Source: a virus
Taxonomy: Duplodnaviria; Heunggongvirae; Uroviricota; Caudoviricetes
Reading direction: 5' to 3' (one strand)
Virus record (IMG/VR): IMGVR_UViG_3300045988_145635
DNA: 64,000 nt
In this document: positions 50,352 to 58,100 of the stretch, one piece after another
How positions within the stretch are numbered: position 1 is the stretch's first letter
Layout: each line of letters begins with the position of its first letter
Made by a program: the position numbers and the translations under genes
The notes under the pieces: model-generated
Databases searched by the model: none
The model's input: only the letters and a program-made list of their open reading frames with translations
Told to the model about the DNA's origin: nothing

Positions 50352-50369
50352 ACAAGGATTTTTTTGAAC

Positions 50370-53300
50370 ATGGAACAGTTCAAGAAGAAAAAGTTACCGC
50401 TGTTTATTGCAGGTGCGGGTGGTAAAAAAAGCAGCAAAAGCTCCAGCCGTACACCGGTTGAAGCCGACGATACCGTAAATTCTCGTGCAATGGCCGCTAT
50501 CCTCGATCTTCTTGGGGAAGGGGTAATTGGCGGCTTAGTAAATGGCGCAAGATCTATTTTTATCGACGATCTGCCGATTGTAAATGAAGACGGTTCCTCC
50601 AACTTCAGCGGAATCACATGGGATTTTCGCGACGGTTCACAAGACCAGACTCCAATGTCTGGCTTTGATTTCGTTGAAACGCCTAAATCCGTCAATATCC
50701 AGTTAAAAAAAACACATTATGTAACGGTTTCAATCGATAACGATGAAGCTGATCGGGTTCGTGTCATCATGAAGTTTCCTTCTTTGCGAAGCATAGATAA
50801 AAAAACTGGTGACACGAACGGTACGACTGTTGAGTACAAGTTCCAGATAGCAAATGGCGACTCAACATTTGTAGATGTGGTCGCTGAAGGTGAAAAAAGC
50901 GTTGGCATTAAGCTAACAGCAAAGAAGACCGGCGTTTATTACCGTAGCTATGAGCTGAAGCTGCCTAAGCCTGGACGAGCATACAAGGTTCGTGTGGTCC
51001 GTATTACCGATGATAACAGTAGCCAGTATCTCTATAACGATACATGGGTGGATTCAATCGGGGAAATTGTCGATACACCGATGAACTATCCAAACTCTGT
51101 TTTGGTTGGATTGAAGGTAAACTCTGAGCAATTCGGCAGCACCATGCCATCTCGCTCTTATCTGGTGCGTGGCCTAAAAATTCGAGTACCTTCAAACTAT
51201 AACGAGTCCAGTAACACTTACGCTGGGGTATGGGATGGCACTTTTAAGCTGTTGTCTTCTTCGAACCCCGCGTGGATTCTCTTTGATTTGCTGACCAATG
51301 CTCGATATGGCCTTGGTCAGTATGTGTCGGAATCTATGATTGACCTTGGCCAGTTGTACCAGATTGGTCGATATTGTGACGAAGAGGTCGATGATGGCTT
51401 TGGTGGCAAAGAGAAACGCTTTGCAATCAATACGCAGATCACCAGTCGACAGGACGCATACCGGCTAATTCAGGATATTGCTGGAGCATTCCGCGGCATG
51501 GTGTTTTGGGCTGGTGGGATGGTTAACATCATGCAGGATAGCCCATCAGATCCGGTAATGATGTTTACCAACTCTAACGTCAAAGATGGATTGTTTACCT
51601 ATAAAGGTTCTGCGCGTAAAGATCGCCCATCCGTTGCGCTCGTAACCTACAACAACAAGGAGGACGGTTATAAGCAAAACATCGAGTACGTCGAAGATCA
51701 GGACGCAATGCGCCGTTATGGTGAGCGTAAAACAGAAGTCGTAGCATTTGGCTGTACAAGCCGAGGGCAGGCTCACCGAGTTGGTTTGTGGCTTTTATAT
51801 ACCGCCAGAATGGAGTCGGATGTAATTACATTTACTGCCGGCTTAGACGCGTCATTTCTGATGCCTGGTGAAACCGTTCTGATTCAGAACAAATATCGCG
51901 CAGGCAAACGTAACTCAGGTCGAATTGTGGCGTTTACCAAAAACAGCGTCACACTCGATGCGCCTGTGTCGTTAGCCAAAGGCGGCTGCTTTATTCGAAT
52001 ACTGAATCAGGAAGGCAAAATCGTTGAACGCGATGTTCTTGAAACTGGCGAAAATATAACAAAAGTTACGTTTTCAAAAGCCCTGTCTTCGGCTGAAACG
52101 CCTGTTTTGAACGGCGTCTGGACTATTACAGAACCAGACCTCGAACCTATGCGCGTTCGCATCGTTAACATCGCGCAGGGGGAAACGCCGGGTAGCTTTG
52201 ACATCACCGCTGTTGAGAACAATCCGTCTAAATATGAGGCAATCGACAATGGTGCAACGCTGATCCCGCAGAATACGACGGTATTGGACCCAACTTACTC
52301 CAAGCCATCTAATCTGCAAATCACTGAAGGGACTTATCTCTCAAGCCCGGGCAACCTGTCAGTAAAACTGACTGCAACATGGGAAGGGAAATCTCCAGAG
52401 TATTGGATCAGTTGGCGACGTTCTGATGAAAACAATGTATCGAACTGGCAATCGGCGCGTGTAACCGAAGAGCAATACGAAATCGTTAATGTCGCGGAGA
52501 ATGGACGCTACGACTTCCAGCTGTATGCGGTTTCATTCAACGGTAAAAAAACAGAGATTATCAGTGCCGTTTATCAGGTGTTGGGCACAATGACACCGCC
52601 GGATTCCCCAACGTCATTAACGGCCGTTGGAGACTATCGTAATGTGATACTGAATTGGGTTAATCCAGATTCGGTAGACCTTGATCACATTAATGTTTAC
52701 GCATCCCAGACCAACAATCTGGATACGGCGAAACTGATCGCAGAGTCTGCAAGCACCACCTTTACACATGCTGGTCTTGGGGATAGCGAAACGTGGTATT
52801 ACTGGGTTCGAGCATCGAACAAGCGAGGTATGTTAAGTCCTCCGAACTCAAACTTGGGTACAGAGGCGACAACTCGCGATGTACTGTCGTTCCTGACTGG
52901 CAAAATTACATCTTCCGAGCTTGGTCAGGCTCTGCTTGAGGACATCAACAGCAAAGCCTCTCAAGAAGCAGTTGACGAGTTAAATGAGCATATCAACCAG
53001 AGCGTCGAATCTTTGGAGGGGGCGGTAAACGACGTTAAGGAAGATATAGCTGAATTAGATAAGCAGTTCAGCGATAACCTCGCGGATTTTGAAATAAAAT
53101 TCAACGAGCGTAGCGATGCTTTGGAGAACGCACAAACCGAGCTTAAAGGTGAGGTTTCGGCAACGATCGACAAGGTCAATGAAGCGTTTGAAAAAATTGA
53201 TGCTACTGATGCTGCAATTGTTGAAATCGAAAACACCGTATCTGAACACGATAAAGCTCTCGCTAATACAGTCGAGGCAATAAAGGCTGCAAGAGATGAA

Positions 53301-55097
53301 GCGGCGGCTCTTATTGCTAAGGAAAGCGAGGCTCGTGTTGAAGGCGATGCTGCAAACGCTAAACAACTGGAAGTGTTGCAGTCAACGGTAGAGGAAAGCT
53401 CCGCTGCCGTTGAAGAAATGAAAAAGACGGTTGCAGAGGTCGATCGTGCCAGTGCAGAACTGACTACGAACATTGAGGCGTTAGCCAAAACAAATATTGA
53501 CCTGGCTCTTCGTCAAGATGAAGACCAGCACAAGCAGATGGTCAATAACGCGAAGATCGCAACAACACAGAAAACCTTTGCTGATGATATGTCTGCAATG
53601 GCCACGAAGGTTGAGGAAATTCGCGTAGAAATTGGCGAAGACATTAAGGCCAGTATTCTGGAAGAGTCCACCGCTCGTGCCGATGGCGATGAAGCGTTGG
53701 CAAAGCGTGTCACTCAGCTGCAATCTAAGTTTGAAGGAGATATCAGCGCGGCGATTAGTACAGAGCAGGAGGCTCGTACATCTGCCGATGAAGCTCTGAC
53801 GACACAGATCACTCAGCTTGAGTCGAAAGTAAGCAACGATATCGTCGCAGCTATTAAGGAAGAGCAAGAAGCCCGAGCAACGGAAGATTCGGCTCTGGCA
53901 AGCCAGATCACCCAACTTCAGGCAAAGGTTGATGATGATATTTCTGCTGCAATACGTAGTGAGCAGGAGGCCCGAGCAAGCGGGGACTCTGCGTTAGCCA
54001 AACAAATAAACCAGCTTCAGTCAAAGGTTGACGGTGATATATCCGCGGCCATCACTCAGGAGCAGGAGGCCAGAGCAAGTGCTGACCAGGCGCTCTCACG
54101 AGAAATTAACAGCCTGCGAGCACAAACCGGAACTGATATTGCCGCAGCGGTTGCTGTAGAGACAAAAGCAAGGACTGATGCCGATAGTGCATTGTCTACC
54201 CAGATTACGTCTCTTACAGCAAAAGCTAATGATCTCGAGGCGTCTCTTGCCAGAGAAACAACGGCTCGTGCAGATGGTGATACCGCTTTAACAAAAGAGG
54301 TTTCAAGTTTAAAAGCACAGACAGCGAAAGATATTAGTGCGGCCGTTGCAGTTGAAACGCAGGCTCGAACTGATGCTGACTCGGCGTTGTCGTCTCAGAT
54401 CACCAAGCTGACCTCTCAATACAAAGAGGATATTAAAGCGGCTGTAGCAACCGAAACGAAAACGCGTACAGAGCAAGATGCTGCATTGGCGACTCAAATC
54501 ACAAACTTAGAGTCTCAAACAGCAGCCAACATTTCTGCGGCGGTCACAACTGAAACGACAGCGAGAACGCAGGCAGATAATGCTCTGAGTGGGCGAATCG
54601 ATACTCTGAAAGCAGAGGTGGATGGAAATACCGCGACAATTCAACAGCAGGCAACAGCTATTGCTGATACCAACAAAAAAGTATCAACCGCGTGGACGTT
54701 GAAAATGGAGACTTCAACGAGCGGAGGGCAGAAGTATGTTGCCGGTATTGCGCTTGGTATTGACACCACTGGGCTATCTCAGTTTTTGGTTCAGGCGGAC
54801 AGGTTTGGTTTGGTCAACTCTGTTAACGGGAAGATCACAACGCCATTTGTTATCGAAAACAGTATCGCCTATATGAATGGAGCGTATATCAAGGATGGCA
54901 CAATCACCAATGCAAAAGTAGGCGATCTGCAATCTACCAATTTTGTTAGCGGTAGATCTGGATGGCGGTTCGGCAAAAATGGAACGCTTGAGATCAACGG
55001 TAATAGCGGCGGCAATGGGAGATTGGTTATAAATGGTCAGCGGATTGACGTTTATGACGATAACAACGTCCTACGAGTAAGAATTGGCCGTCTGTGA
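50370..55097 (+). CDS. Central tail fibre / host specificity protein (lambda gpJ-like) with internal tandem repeats
   Basis: ~1575 aa following M-L-K-I; fibronectin-like middle; ~11 tandem 28-aa repeats. Confidence 0.8.
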   Translation: MEQFKKKKLPLFIAGAGGKKSSKSSSRTPVEADDTVNSRAMAAILDLLGEGVIGGLVNGARSIFIDDLPIVNEDGSSNFSGITWDFRDGSQDQTPMSGFDFVETPKSVNIQLKKTHYVTVSIDNDEADRVRVIMKFPSLRSIDKKTGDTNGTTVEYKFQIANGDSTFVDVVAEGEKSVGIKLTAKKTGVYYRSYELKLPKPGRAYKVRVVRITDDNSSQYLYNDTWVDSIGEIVDTPMNYPNSVLVGLKVNSEQFGSTMPSRSYLVRGLKIRVPSNYNESSNTYAGVWDGTFKLLSSSNPAWILFDLLTNARYGLGQYVSESMIDLGQLYQIGRYCDEEVDDGFGGKEKRFAINTQITSRQDAYRLIQDIAGAFRGMVFWAGGMVNIMQDSPSDPVMMFTNSNVKDGLFTYKGSARKDRPSVALVTYNNKEDGYKQNIEYVEDQDAMRRYGERKTEVVAFGCTSRGQAHRVGLWLLYTARMESDVITFTAGLDASFLMPGETVLIQNKYRAGKRNSGRIVAFTKNSVTLDAPVSLAKGGCFIRILNQEGKIVERDVLETGENITKVTFSKALSSAETPVLNGVWTITEPDLEPMRVRIVNIAQGETPGSFDITAVENNPSKYEAIDNGATLIPQNTTVLDPTYSKPSNLQITEGTYLSSPGNLSVKLTATWEGKSPEYWISWRRSDENNVSNWQSARVTEEQYEIVNVAENGRYDFQLYAVSFNGKKTEIISAVYQVLGTMTPPDSPTSLTAVGDYRNVILNWVNPDSVDLDHINVYASQTNNLDTAKLIAESASTTFTHAGLGDSETWYYWVRASNKRGMLSPPNSNLGTEATTRDVLSFLTGKITSSELGQALLEDINSKASQEAVDELNEHINQSVESLEGAVNDVKEDIAELDKQFSDNLADFEIKFNERSDALENAQTELKGEVSATIDKVNEAFEKIDATDAAIVEIENTVSEHDKALANTVEAIKAARDEAAALIAKESEARVEGDAANAKQLEVLQSTVEESSAAVEEMKKTVAEVDRASAELTTNIEALAKTNIDLALRQDEDQHKQMVNNAKIATTQKTFADDMSAMATKVEEIRVEIGEDIKASILEESTARADGDEALAKRVTQLQSKFEGDISAAISTEQEARTSADEALTTQITQLESKVSNDIVAAIKEEQEARATEDSALASQITQLQAKVDDDISAAIRSEQEARASGDSALAKQINQLQSKVDGDISAAITQEQEARASADQALSREINSLRAQTGTDIAAAVAVETKARTDADSALSTQITSLTAKANDLEASLARETTARADGDTALTKEVSSLKAQTAKDISAAVAVETQARTDADSALSSQITKLTSQYKEDIKAAVATETKTRTEQDAALATQITNLESQTAANISAAVTTETTARTQADNALSGRIDTLKAEVDGNTATIQQQATAIADTNKKVSTAWTLKMETSTSGGQKYVAGIALGIDTTGLSQFLVQADRFGLVNSVNGKITTPFVIENSIAYMNGAYIKDGTITNAKVGDLQSTNFVSGRSGWRFGKNGTLEINGNSGGNGRLVINGQRIDVYDDNNVLRVRIGRL

Positions 55098-55190: not shown

Positions 55191-58100
55191 ATGTGGTACA
55201 GGGAAGGTACTATCACATTTACACAGGGTAGCAATACTCTGGTTGGGGCAGGGACAGCCTGGAACGTAACAGCTAATGGTGTGTTGCCGGGGATGATCGT
55301 CATTGGCCCCGACAATAAGCTGTATGAGATCAAGCGCGTAATAAGCGATACGAATATTGTTCTCTCAGAACCTTATACCGGCGAAACTCAGTCTGAGGTT
55401 CCGTGCCGAATCATTACGACCTATGAAGGCGACTTAACACAGTTTAGCGCGCGCTTTACAGCACTAATGTCGCGTATGTCGGCTGATTCCAAGTCTATGC
55501 GCAGTTGGTTGACTGCTCTGGATGAGGTGACAATCGAGCGTGAAGACGGTACAGAAGTAACCGTTAAGCCGCTAATGCAGATCGTCAACGAGCACAACGA
55601 AAACGTTGAGTGGTATAAAAATAACACTGACGCGATTGATGCTGCTGGCGACAAAGCTCGTGAGGCAGCGGCCAGTGCTGCCGCAGCAGCAGAAAGCGCC
55701 AATACCGCTGGAGAAAAAGCCTCTCAAGCGTCTCAAAGTGCATCCGCTGCGGCATCCTCACAAAGTGCCGCAAGTGCGAGTGCAACTGCTGCGAAAAAAT
55801 CTGAAACGAATGCCGCAGCGTCACAACAATCAGCAGCCACTTCTGCATCCACCGCGACCACGAAAGCGTCAGAAGCTGCCACCTCAGCCCGGGATGCGGC
55901 GGCCTCAAAAGAGGCAGCGAAATCATCAGAAACGAGCGCAGCCTCGAGCGCCAGTAATGCCGCTTCCTCGGCAACGGCGGCAGGAAATTCCGCGAAGGCG
56001 GCAAAAACGTCCGAGACGAACGCCAGGTCTTCTGAAACGGCAGCGGGACAGAGCGCCTCGGCTGCGGCAGGCTCAAAAACAGCGGCTGCGTCGTCTGCCA
56101 GTGCCGCGTCAACAAGTGCCGGGCAGGCCTCAGCCAGTGCCACCGCCGCCGGAAAATCGGCAGAAAGTGCCGCATCGTCTGCTTCAACAGCCACAACGAA
56201 GGCTGGCGAAGCCACTGAACAGGCCAGCGCAGCAGCGAGGTCTGCTTCCGCAGCGAAGACATCCGAAACGAACGCGAAAGCGTCGGAAACCCGTGCAGAA
56301 TCCTCAAAAACGGCAGCCGCATCGTCCGCCAGTTCGGCAGCGTCATCGGCATCATCTGCGTCTGCTTCAAAAGATGAGGCGACCAGACAGGCGTCAGCAG
56401 CGAAGGGCAGCGCCACGACGGCATACACGAAAGCAACAGAGGCGGCAGGCAGTGCGACGGCAGCATCTCAGAGCAAAACTGCTGCTGAATCCGCTGCGAC
56501 CCGTGCGGAAGCTGCTGCTGATCGTGCTGAAGAGATTGCCGGTGCAGTTGCGATGGAAGACGCAAGCCTTACAACTAAAGGTGTTGTGAAACTTAGCAGT
56601 GCTGTCGACAGCACCAGTGAATCGCTGGCCGCAACGCCAAAAGCAGTTAAAGTAGTCAATGACAATGCGAACAGCAGGGTGCCATCTAACCGAAAAATTA
56701 ACGGGAAAGCACTGACTGCGGATATCACATTAACGCCGAAAGATATTGGTACTTTAAATTCAATAACGATGTCTTTCTCTGGCGGGGCCGGGTGGTTCAA
56801 ACTGGCTACTGTTACAATGCCACAAGCGAGTTCCATCGTTTACATCGCATTGATTGGTGGCGCTGGTTACAACGTCGGCTCCCCACATCAGGCAGGCATT
56901 TCAGAACTGGTTCTACGAGCAGGCAATGGAAACCCCAAAGGGATTACAGGTGCTTTGTGGAAGCGTACAGCTGTCGGATTAACGAATTTCGCCTGGATCA
57001 ACACATCCGGCGATACATATGATATTTACGTTGAGATTGGCAATTATGCGACTCGTGTAAATATCCATTGGGATTGTACTGCAAATGCGACAGTTTCTAT
57101 TTATACATCGCCAACATATTCAGCTAGTAAGCCTTCCAGCGTTACCGATGGTGTTGTTTATACGATGTATAGCACACATCAGAAACCGACGCCGTTAGAT
57201 ATTGGAGCACTGCCAACAACCGGAGGAACAGTTTCAGGTCCGTTGTCTGTTACTGGTGGGATCACCGGAACATTAAATGGTAATGCAAGTACAGCAACGA
57301 AATTGCAGACGGCAAGATCTATCGGTGGAGTTGGTTTCGACGGTTCTGCAAATATCAACCTTCCAGGTGTAAATACTACGGGTAATCAGAACACCACTGG
57401 TAATGCTGCAACTGCTACAAAACTTCAGACGGCAAGAACTATCGGCGGCGTGAGCTTTGATGGTACTGCGAATATTAATTTGCCAGGTGTTAATACGACT
57501 GGTAATCAGAATACAACGGGCAACGCGGCTACTGCTACGAAGTTGCAGACTGCGCGTACTATCAATGGGGTGTCGTTTGACGGCTCGGCAAATATTTCCT
57601 TGTCGCCAACAAATATAGGTTGCCCGGCATCTCCTACTGGTTGGTTAACTACAGGAAGTAATGGCGGAGCAATAACAACAGCACAGTTAGTGACGTTATT
57701 GCAAAATAATGGTGCTTTTAATGCAAAGGCATGGATAGCGCGTTGTGCTTGGGCGTATGCAAATAGTGCATCCATACCAGACAGCGAAACAGGATGCGGC
57801 ATTATTCCACTGGCTGGCGCAGTTATTGAGGTATTTAATAACGGTAGTAGCTCAAACAATTATACGATCCGCATAACAACGGCCACAACGACAAGTGTTT
57901 CCGGTGCTCTCACTAATGCGGAGTTTATCTATGTATTTAACGGGACGAGCTATTCACCAGGATGGCGCAGAGCGTATAACACTAAAAACAAGCCTACTGC
58001 GGCTGATGTCGGAGCTTTACCACTATCTGGAGGAGCGTTAACTGGCGGATTAACGTCTTCTGGTGAGATCGTTTCAAAATATGCAAATGGTTTCCGCATT

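Follow-up and report, generated by a model that had tools for sequence, protein, structure and literature searches.

Within the 64,000-nucleotide stretch of viral DNA analysed here (IMG/VR record IMGVR_UViG_3300045988_145635, Caudoviricetes; hereafter the window), the gene for a central tail fibre of the lambda gpJ type carries a long tandem repeat just before the part encoding its distal domain, and the question raised by this locus is what such a repeat does for the fibre. An earlier note, made from the letters alone, had described about eleven units of 28 amino acids (aa), or 84 bp, which would form a coiled-coil or beta-helical spacer and might vary in number, affecting fibre length and host range. 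The reading that we rate a little better than even is that ten units make up the distal end of an extended trimeric helical shaft, which would be metastable and refold into a beta-prism on receptor engagement.

Autocorrelation of the protein sequence (aa 1093–1419) gave its highest value at lag 33 (mean BLOSUM62 score 2.19, 49% identity), with further peaks at 66 and 99, and the best lag among 1000 shuffled sequences was never above 0.25. The self-comparison that had been proposed as a check therefore returned a sharp period, far beyond that of shuffled sequences. The tandem repeat lies where it had been placed, the first unit starting exactly at 53640 and the tenth ending at 54626, but the period is 33 aa and 99 bp: lag 28 gave 9.7% protein identity and lag 84 gave 25% DNA identity, compared with 53% DNA identity at lag 99. 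The consensus string of the note itself has 31 residues, so that "28 aa" was a miscount, and its count of about eleven was wrong as well: there are ten full units, a degenerate eleventh unit and an isolated upstream copy (aa 979–1011, 53298–53396) located 114 aa upstream of unit 1, at which distance its hidden Markov model (HMM) match was always found. The consensus of the unit is DIsAAI..EqeARt.AD.AL..QIt.Lq.k..., and one residue missing at the boundary of units 6 and 7 shifts the 33-residue register once.

At the DNA level, the units share only 39–66% identity, and identity at third codon positions was 32.5%, which is near random. The most similar pair, units 3 and 4, reached 66% identity in DNA and 73% in protein; the longest exact match between any two units was 12 nt, shared by units 4 and 5; and Tandem Repeats Finder at its lowest score threshold reported no repeat in 53640–54626. 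Because the DNA copies have diverged, third positions are near random and exact matches do not exceed 12 nt, the repeat, which can be seen in the protein sequence only, is conserved at that level, and judged from these identities the units are old duplications whose similarity is kept by selection on the protein.

The placement of the array inside a gpJ-like central fibre was borne out by Pfam domains, by the M-L-K-I-J gene order and by similarity to PDB entries for lambda J, T1 gp33 and the fibre of F2 pyocin, and by these marks the gene product belongs to the lambda gpJ-like central tail fibres. The protein has 1577 aa when counted from TTG 50364, the numbering used throughout; the annotation of Escherichia phage Cyrano (= pLF82) takes ATG 50370 as the start, which gives 1575 aa. 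Pfam identified FNIII-A_GpJ (aa 104–238; E = 1.5e-29), Phage-tail_3 (360–523; E = 7e-34), fn3 (647–730) and Phage_Tail_Tip (DUF1983; 1425–1559; E = 1.4e-41) in that order along the protein, and assigned no domain between the end of fn3 at aa 730 and the start of DUF1983 at aa 1425. In phmmer searches against PDB, aa 21–863 aligned with residues 3–837 of lambda J (8iyk_J) and likewise with the F2 pyocin fibre (25vf_A) and T1 gp33 (9l9p_S), and aa 1421–1549 aligned with lambda J 839–971 (8xcj_Z, 8jvm_F, 9wca_J). Since the flanks match lambda J up to 837 and again from 839, aa ~865–1420 constitute an insert of ~555 residues relative to lambda, of which the distal 329 belong to the tandem units. 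Thus hub, FN3 and DUF1983 are collinear with lambda gpJ (PDB 8iyk, 8xcj) and the tail-tip gene order is identical, whereas lambda has practically no helical shaft, residues 837–839 joining what ~555 aa separate here, and continues for ~160 residues beyond the DUF1983 match. The counterpart of this lambda extension (J ~972–1132) is absent from the window protein, which ends 18 aa past DUF1983. Lambda is described as lacking a large fold switch in the F7 pyocin preprint discussed below (PMC12874032). Foldseek against PDB (library to April 2026, in which 25vf is not contained) matched the DUF1983 part to lambda gpJ and the SU10 fibre, and nothing outside that part.

The insert has counterparts elsewhere. 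Units 5–10 together with DUF1983 (aa 1242–1549) aligned in phmmer with residues 882–1193 of the F2 pyocin fibre (25vf_A; E = 8.4e-25), and the units aligned with 33-aa repeats of T1 gp33 (9l9p_S); the shaft segment of F2 pyocin is a solved three-stranded coiled coil to which the side fibres attach (PMC13455828, PDB 25vf). Homology of the array region to the central-fibre shafts of F-type pyocins and T1, as judged from these alignments, is the best supported of our conclusions; that the array forms a coiled-coil shaft is well supported, and the coil is probably trimeric in this phage-plasmid as well. Note that relatedness to F-type pyocins was measured against F2, not F7. In both F7 (PMC12874032) and F2 (PMC13455828) the shaft likewise lies in a J-like protein directly before a DUF1983-type C-terminal domain, and the likeness extends to (here predicted) alpha-helical structure, SxSxxMxxLxS motifs in alternating orientation, Glu/Asp–Arg pairs at i±4 and side fibre genes downstream. 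The differences are those of size and setting: the window array has 329 aa in ten regular, recognisable units preceded by ~228 aa more of helix, whereas the F7 region is an irregular stretch of 163 aa, and the window encodes a phage-plasmid virion rather than a tailocin, with no PyoF11/F12-like tip proteins identified. T1 gp33 (PDB 9l9p) is J-like, contains 33-aa units of the same kind (DDIQASLTDIREVIATETEALSREIDQLKAQIG) followed by DUF1983, and has the same C-terminal end, but only about three units; its C-terminus (821–1172) was too flexible to resolve, and AlphaFold 3 (AF3) suggested an alpha/beta fibre of ~37 nm (PMC11945409).

AlphaFold2 (AF2) modelling of the monomer with an alignment of 91 sequences predicted helices at aa 1061–1254, 1257–1351 and 1357–1409 (pLDDT, the predicted local distance difference test score, about 75) and strands at aa 1411–1419, 1422–1434 and 1440–1451. 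From the single sequence, the predicted helix ended at aa 1442 and was interrupted once, in unit 7 (aa 1299–1305). The two runs differed only at aa 1411–1442, which were beta with the alignment and helical without it. In the former run the degenerate eleventh unit forms two strands where the two motifs described below lie in the other units, and these predicted strands are candidates for the "non-switching seed strands" of a prism, a term from PMC12874032.

According to that 2026 preprint on the F7 pyocin (PMC12874032), the 163-residue coiled coil before the C-terminal domain turns into a triangular beta-prism on cell binding, and this switch opens the tail tip and frees the tape measure protein. 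The strands follow SxSxxMxxLxS in strand orientation, with Glu or Asp at M often paired with Arg at i±4; replacing the small "S" residues, exposed in the coil but buried at the prism corners, with Gln abolished killing and left assembly unaffected; and of 24 siphophage central fibres, 21 were predicted by AF3 and CF-random to undergo the switch too. The preprint describes no repeat architecture, the word "repeat" being absent from its text.

In the window, a reverse motif (A-x-I/V/L-x-x-E-x-x-A/T-x-A/T) starting at unit position 4 (positions 4–14) and a forward motif (A-x-A/S/T-x-x-I/V-x-x-L-x-S/A) starting at position 19 (positions 19–29) were each found in 10 of 10 units. Matches of the SxSxxMxxLxS type numbered 27, compared with 5.8 ± 2.3 in composition-matched shuffles, and 0 of 2000 shuffles reached 27; the upstream helical segment was weakly enriched (7 matches versus 2.7 ± 1.6), and enrichment looked for in the hub and DUF1983 parts was absent. 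Positions 4, 12, 14, 19, 21 and 29 carry a small residue in every one of the ten units, the segments that separate the motifs (positions 15–18 and 30–3) are rich in Asp, Gly and Asn, and E9, R13 and D17 are invariant in all ten, which fits the pairing of Glu at M with Arg at i+4 described in PMC12874032. Units of 32, 33, 36 and 39 aa in other lineages differ at the unit's C-terminal end, a predicted longer turn. Reverse and forward motifs also occur at 32-aa spacing upstream of the array, the reverse motifs starting at aa 950, 982 and 1014 (about 53211–53435); these pairs look like eroded units, and the repeat-derived region may extend ~140 residues further toward the N-terminus.

Analysis of hydrophobic periodicity revealed values of 3.65–3.67 residues in the units, equal to 33/9, and of 3.56 in the upstream helical part; the 3.67 harmonic was significant on the whole array (p = 0.0015), and the nine core positions per unit (2, 6, 9, 13, 16/17, 20, 24, 27 and 31) fit this period. 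A canonical heptad coiled coil was rejected, since power at 3.50 was not above that of shuffles, and the peak is rather hendecad-like. The strongest harmonic of the unit-averaged hydrophobicity, however, was 2.06 residues, corresponding to beta alternation (column-permutation p = 0.013). Across the whole array the power at period 2.06 was not significant: the phase is inverted by the one unit of 32 aa, and the signal was divided between peaks at 2.05 and 2.07. Of the "coiled-coil or beta-helical spacer" of the earlier note, the helical half agrees with the predicted helix and the solved F-pyocin homologue, and the beta half finds an echo in the F7 switch motif; both alternatives may hold, in different functional states.

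These features together moderately support membership of the array in the fold-switching shaft class, with the 33-residue unit as its modular element. In the loaded state, the shaft would lie between the FN3-bearing tail-tip hub and DUF1983, with about nine helical turns per 33-residue unit and the invariant Glu9–Arg13–Asp17 ladder running through the core of the coil. Because each unit holds two oppositely oriented strand motifs separated by Asp/Gly/Asn-rich turns, such a shaft would be metastable, and receptor engagement would refold it, as in the F7 pyocin, into a triangular beta-prism, for which strands at the beginning of DUF1983 would act as the seed. The refolding would open the tail tip and, with one beta-hairpin per unit as the motif layout suggests, take ~4 nm off the fibre for each unit: at 0.148 nm per residue, a helix of ten units would measure ~49 nm, and a stack of their twenty strands ~10 nm. 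Both fibre reach and stroke length would then depend on unit number, which ranges from 1 to 11 in the phage-plasmid family; units come and go through unequal crossing-over between those neighbours that are most alike.

Several points weigh against refolding. AF2 gave only helix for the units of the monomer, even with 91 sequences, and did not predict the beta state. The motif is a regular expression that we built from the text of PMC12874032, and ten related units are not ten independent observations in the motif statistics. Residue numbers given in that preprint (S: 987, 995, 1010, 1017; M: 1039 with R1043; exposed controls 998 and 1011) appear to fit strands ~16 residues apart, a threading that is ours and not the authors'; it would give about ten strands per 163 residues, whereas the legend gives five or six strands for the aligned switch regions. 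Finally, the unit is widespread. An exhaustive HMMER search with the 329-aa array returned 1811 clusters (50% identity) at E ≤ 1e-3, of which 118 also passed E ≤ 1e-30, and the best 139 new matches (P0121 onward) contained 2–24 units, with 32 aa as the commonest spacing and 18 units in the longest tandem run. The architectures include J-like central fibres and T7-type fibres composed of a Phage_T7_tail N-terminus, units and DUF1983; the latter speak for a module of general use in fibre shafts. Its occurrence with DUF1983 in fibres of T7-type podoviruses (P0177; SU10 fibre), for which a puncturing stroke is less obviously needed, therefore tempers the case for a fold switch.

The strongest competitor, possible although we hold it to be less probable, is a passive ruler, namely a rigid trimeric coiled-coil spacer that never refolds, sets the distance from the tail tip of the DUF1983 domain and of anything bound to it and, through copy number, tunes reach through O-antigen or capsule. 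The predicted helix, the 3.67-residue core periodicity, the solved coiled-coil shaft of F2 pyocin and the presence of the module in podovirus fibres all agree with it, as do the copy-number changes described below, which come in whole units and keep the register. It leaves unexplained the six invariably small positions per unit, which would face solvent in a coiled coil, the strongest hydrophobic harmonic at ~2 residues, and the fact that the F7 strand motif is matched exactly, with alternating orientation.

The array could alternatively serve mainly as a scaffold that binds the N-terminal domains of the downstream side fibre, so that more units would allow more or differently spaced side fibres; we regard this as improbable. 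Side fibres of F2 and F7 do attach to the central shaft and stabilise it (PMC13455828, PMC12874032), and in the side fibre encoded in the window the N-terminal aa 2–107 (region 55191–55511) weakly match residues 3–104 of its F2 pyocin counterpart (25ve_A; E = 0.0025). Docking kinks could lie where the register breaks at units 6–7 and where helix breaks are predicted (aa 1255–1256 and 1352–1356). The similarity to the F2 side fibre is, however, weak and single, F pyocins bind side fibres only at one short acidic gap and not at every unit, and the one-unit allele of pSTEC388_1 is still an intact open reading frame (ORF). Docking as such is a separate matter: because F-pyocin side fibres dock on the central shaft (PMC13455828) and the N-termini match weakly, the side fibre of the window may do so too. 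The same ~107 N-terminal residues also weakly match the distal tail protein gp20 (23gd_B, E = 0.015).

That the units form a beta-helix or beta-prism already in the mature virion, like the central straight fibre of lambda, is very unlikely: period-2 hydrophobic alternation, a high content of Ala, Thr, Ser, Ile and Val and the predicted strands of DUF1983 would suit it, but both AF2 runs gave helix, the corresponding segments of F2 and F7 are helices until ejection, and an invariant i/i+4 ladder such as E9-R13-D17 is typical of helices.

The prediction that repeat number varies was confirmed by comparison across related elements, in which whole-unit differences were found. By gene similarity the window is an SSU5-like E. 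coli phage-plasmid: its central fibre gene shares 99.2% identity with CYRAN_20 of Cyrano, a siphovirus with a flexible tail of ~259 nm (PMC9928086), and at least 99% identity with 51 PLSDB plasmids from E. coli and E. albertii, whereas SSU5 showed 78% identity across the first 62% of the gene. Among the homologous proteins listed, all of at most 844 aa and many of them labelled partial, full arrays were countable only where the upstream isolated copy was present; unit counts were taken instead from annotated plasmid and phage loci. One unit was counted in pSTEC388_1; five in SSU5 and in plasmids of Salmonella, Enterobacter, Kluyvera and E. marmotae; six in Y. pestis pMT1-type and Citrobacter plasmids; nine in PhiR41_1; and ten in the window, Cyrano, an O104:H4 plasmid and CMS-2020a. 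Among these SSU5-like elements the flanks were constant, only whole units differed, and units were positionally orthologous between alleles; the 32-residue spacing at units 6–7 was kept in the Cyrano, O104:H4-plasmid and PhiR41_1 alleles. SSU5-like J proteins (SSU5_020, Y. pestis pMT1 and pHCM2-type plasmids) are orthologous to that of the window, with the same flanks and the same unit, although J of Y. pestis and Citrobacter has a longer C-terminus. In pSTEC388_1, whose J is intact at 1229 aa, the N-terminal part of the sole tandem unit resembles unit 1 and its C-terminal end unit 10, a natural "minimal shaft". Other relatives depart further: SSU5-like phages of Klebsiella (L005, L006) kept the hub and carry more than 1300 aa of other sequence and domains in place of units and DUF1983, in a J ORF of more than 2210 aa that runs past the retrieved locus, and the annotated 3662-aa J-like protein of E. 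coli pSCMY1 contains no units in its last 1771 aa.

Among complete E. coli genomes, 167 plasmids contained the array at ≥96.4% identity. In a sample of 59 full-coverage rows, the 10-unit length was kept by 55 (one with an IS1 insertion), and 4 differed by exactly 99 bp. The 9- and 11-unit plasmids were 96.7–98.5% identical to the window: pCUPF07B (11 units) contains an additional r5/r4 hybrid unit, pPEC178_2 and 2013C-4991 (9 units) are joined at the r3/r4 boundary, and AH02 (9 units) has an r4/r5 hybrid; r3/r4 hybrids also occur among the 9- and 11-unit alleles. Between PhiR41_1 and the O104:H4-type allele the difference is one indel of exactly 99 bp at an 11-nt microhomology, at the equivalent of units 3–5, the DNA being otherwise identical. 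The hybrid units in 9- and 11-unit alleles, and the fact that units 3–5 are the most similar neighbours, point to unequal crossing-over within these units, and by the hybrid junctions at least three such events are recent and independent. Changes in unit number are thus occasional events, and the array is neither a slippage hot spot nor a hypervariable locus. The least probable explanation, close to negligible, is accordingly a DNA-level contingency locus in which frequent slippage switches host range: gains and losses do occur among close relatives, but the divergence between units, the lack of any common run longer than 12 nt, the negative Tandem Repeats Finder result, the 10-unit length kept in 55 of the 59 rows and its retention, apart from insertion sequence (IS) insertions, by all plasmid-collection matches listed argue against it.

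On geometric grounds copy number should affect fibre length. If the shaft refolds, the unit might be a quantal fold-switch module, copy number setting, in ~4-nm steps, the reach and the contraction stroke or stored energy of a spring-loaded "non-contractile" tail, and the alleles of 1, 5, 6, 9, 10 and 11 units (up to 18–24 elsewhere) being stroke variants matched to envelope thickness; we offer this tentatively and think it less likely than not to hold in full.

Features of the central fibre gene and the adjacent side tail fibre gene, in window coordinates
Feature	Coordinates	Strand	Evidence
gpJ-like central tail fibre / tip attachment protein gene	50364..55097	+	ORF list, translation, Pfam, PHROG 31 "central tail fiber J"
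Hub/tail-tip part, aa 1–864	50364..52955	+	phmmer against PDB, collinear with lambda J 3–837
Non-tandem helical segment, aa 865–1092	52956..53639	+	Hydrophobic periodicity 3.56; isolated unit copy; weaker motif pairs
Tandem array: ten units, of which nine have 33 aa and one has 32 aa	53640..54626	+	Autocorrelation, unit layout, column conservation, motif count, AF2 helix
Units 3–5, most similar neighbours	53838..54134	+	DNA/protein identity; hybrid units in alleles of relatives
Units 6–7, jointly 65 aa (one residue short)	54135..54329	+	32-residue spacing of HMM matches
Degenerate eleventh unit, aa 1422–1454, running into DUF1983	54627..54725	+	Unit layout; AF2
Phage_Tail_Tip (DUF1983) distal domain	54636..55040	+	Pfam, PDB and Foldseek matches
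Side tail fibre gene, 1341 aa	55191..59216	+	PHROG tail fibre families; Gp34_trimer domain aa 907–1008

Upstream of the central fibre gene lie the tape measure gene and homologues of M, L, K and I, giving the order M-L-K-I-J by PHROG matches and the Cyrano annotation, and the side tail fibre gene follows downstream of J, as in the position of a lambda-like J. Minus-strand ORFs over the array (e.g. 53481–53915) were taken to be frame shadows of J, because J is intact and conserved in all close relatives. The stretch that leads into unit 1 (window ~53403–53677, aa ~1014–1105, including TNIDLALRQDEDQHKQ...) showed ~80–82% DNA identity in plasmids of Yersinia pestis, Citrobacter, Enterobacter, Salmonella and Kluyvera, in which the J sequence beside it was too diverged for megablast; on this conservation it may be an interaction site. 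The side fibre gene contains a repeat of its own at 57290–57596, ~2.5 tandem copies of a 120-bp (40-aa) unit with 74–75% matches, roughly TATKLQTARTIGGVSFDGSANINLPGVNTTGNQNTTGNAA. In several plasmids (e.g. NZ_CP053233.1, NZ_CP085184.1, NZ_CP028433.1, NZ_CP020118.1, NZ_CP124394.1) J gene copies are broken or shortened by IS1203/IS3, IS1 or IS66, which suggests that infectivity is decaying in some plasmid-resident lineages.

The array is an unusually long and regular addition to a type of central-fibre shaft described only recently (2026). What supplies the energy with which non-contractile tails breach the envelope is an open question, for which a fold-switching central fibre was proposed only in 2026. 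Were the array a passive spacer only, it would be an ordinary though well-characterised fibre repeat. If the refolding shaft proposed here is correct, this phage-plasmid family would contain a regular, modular version of the fold-switch device, with natural alleles that differ by whole units (1 to 11), and would offer a ready-made allele series with which the influence of shaft length on reach, stroke and host range could be tested. Since SSU5-like phage-plasmids number among the common carriers of resistance genes in Enterobacteriaceae, the determinants of their adsorption are also of practical interest.

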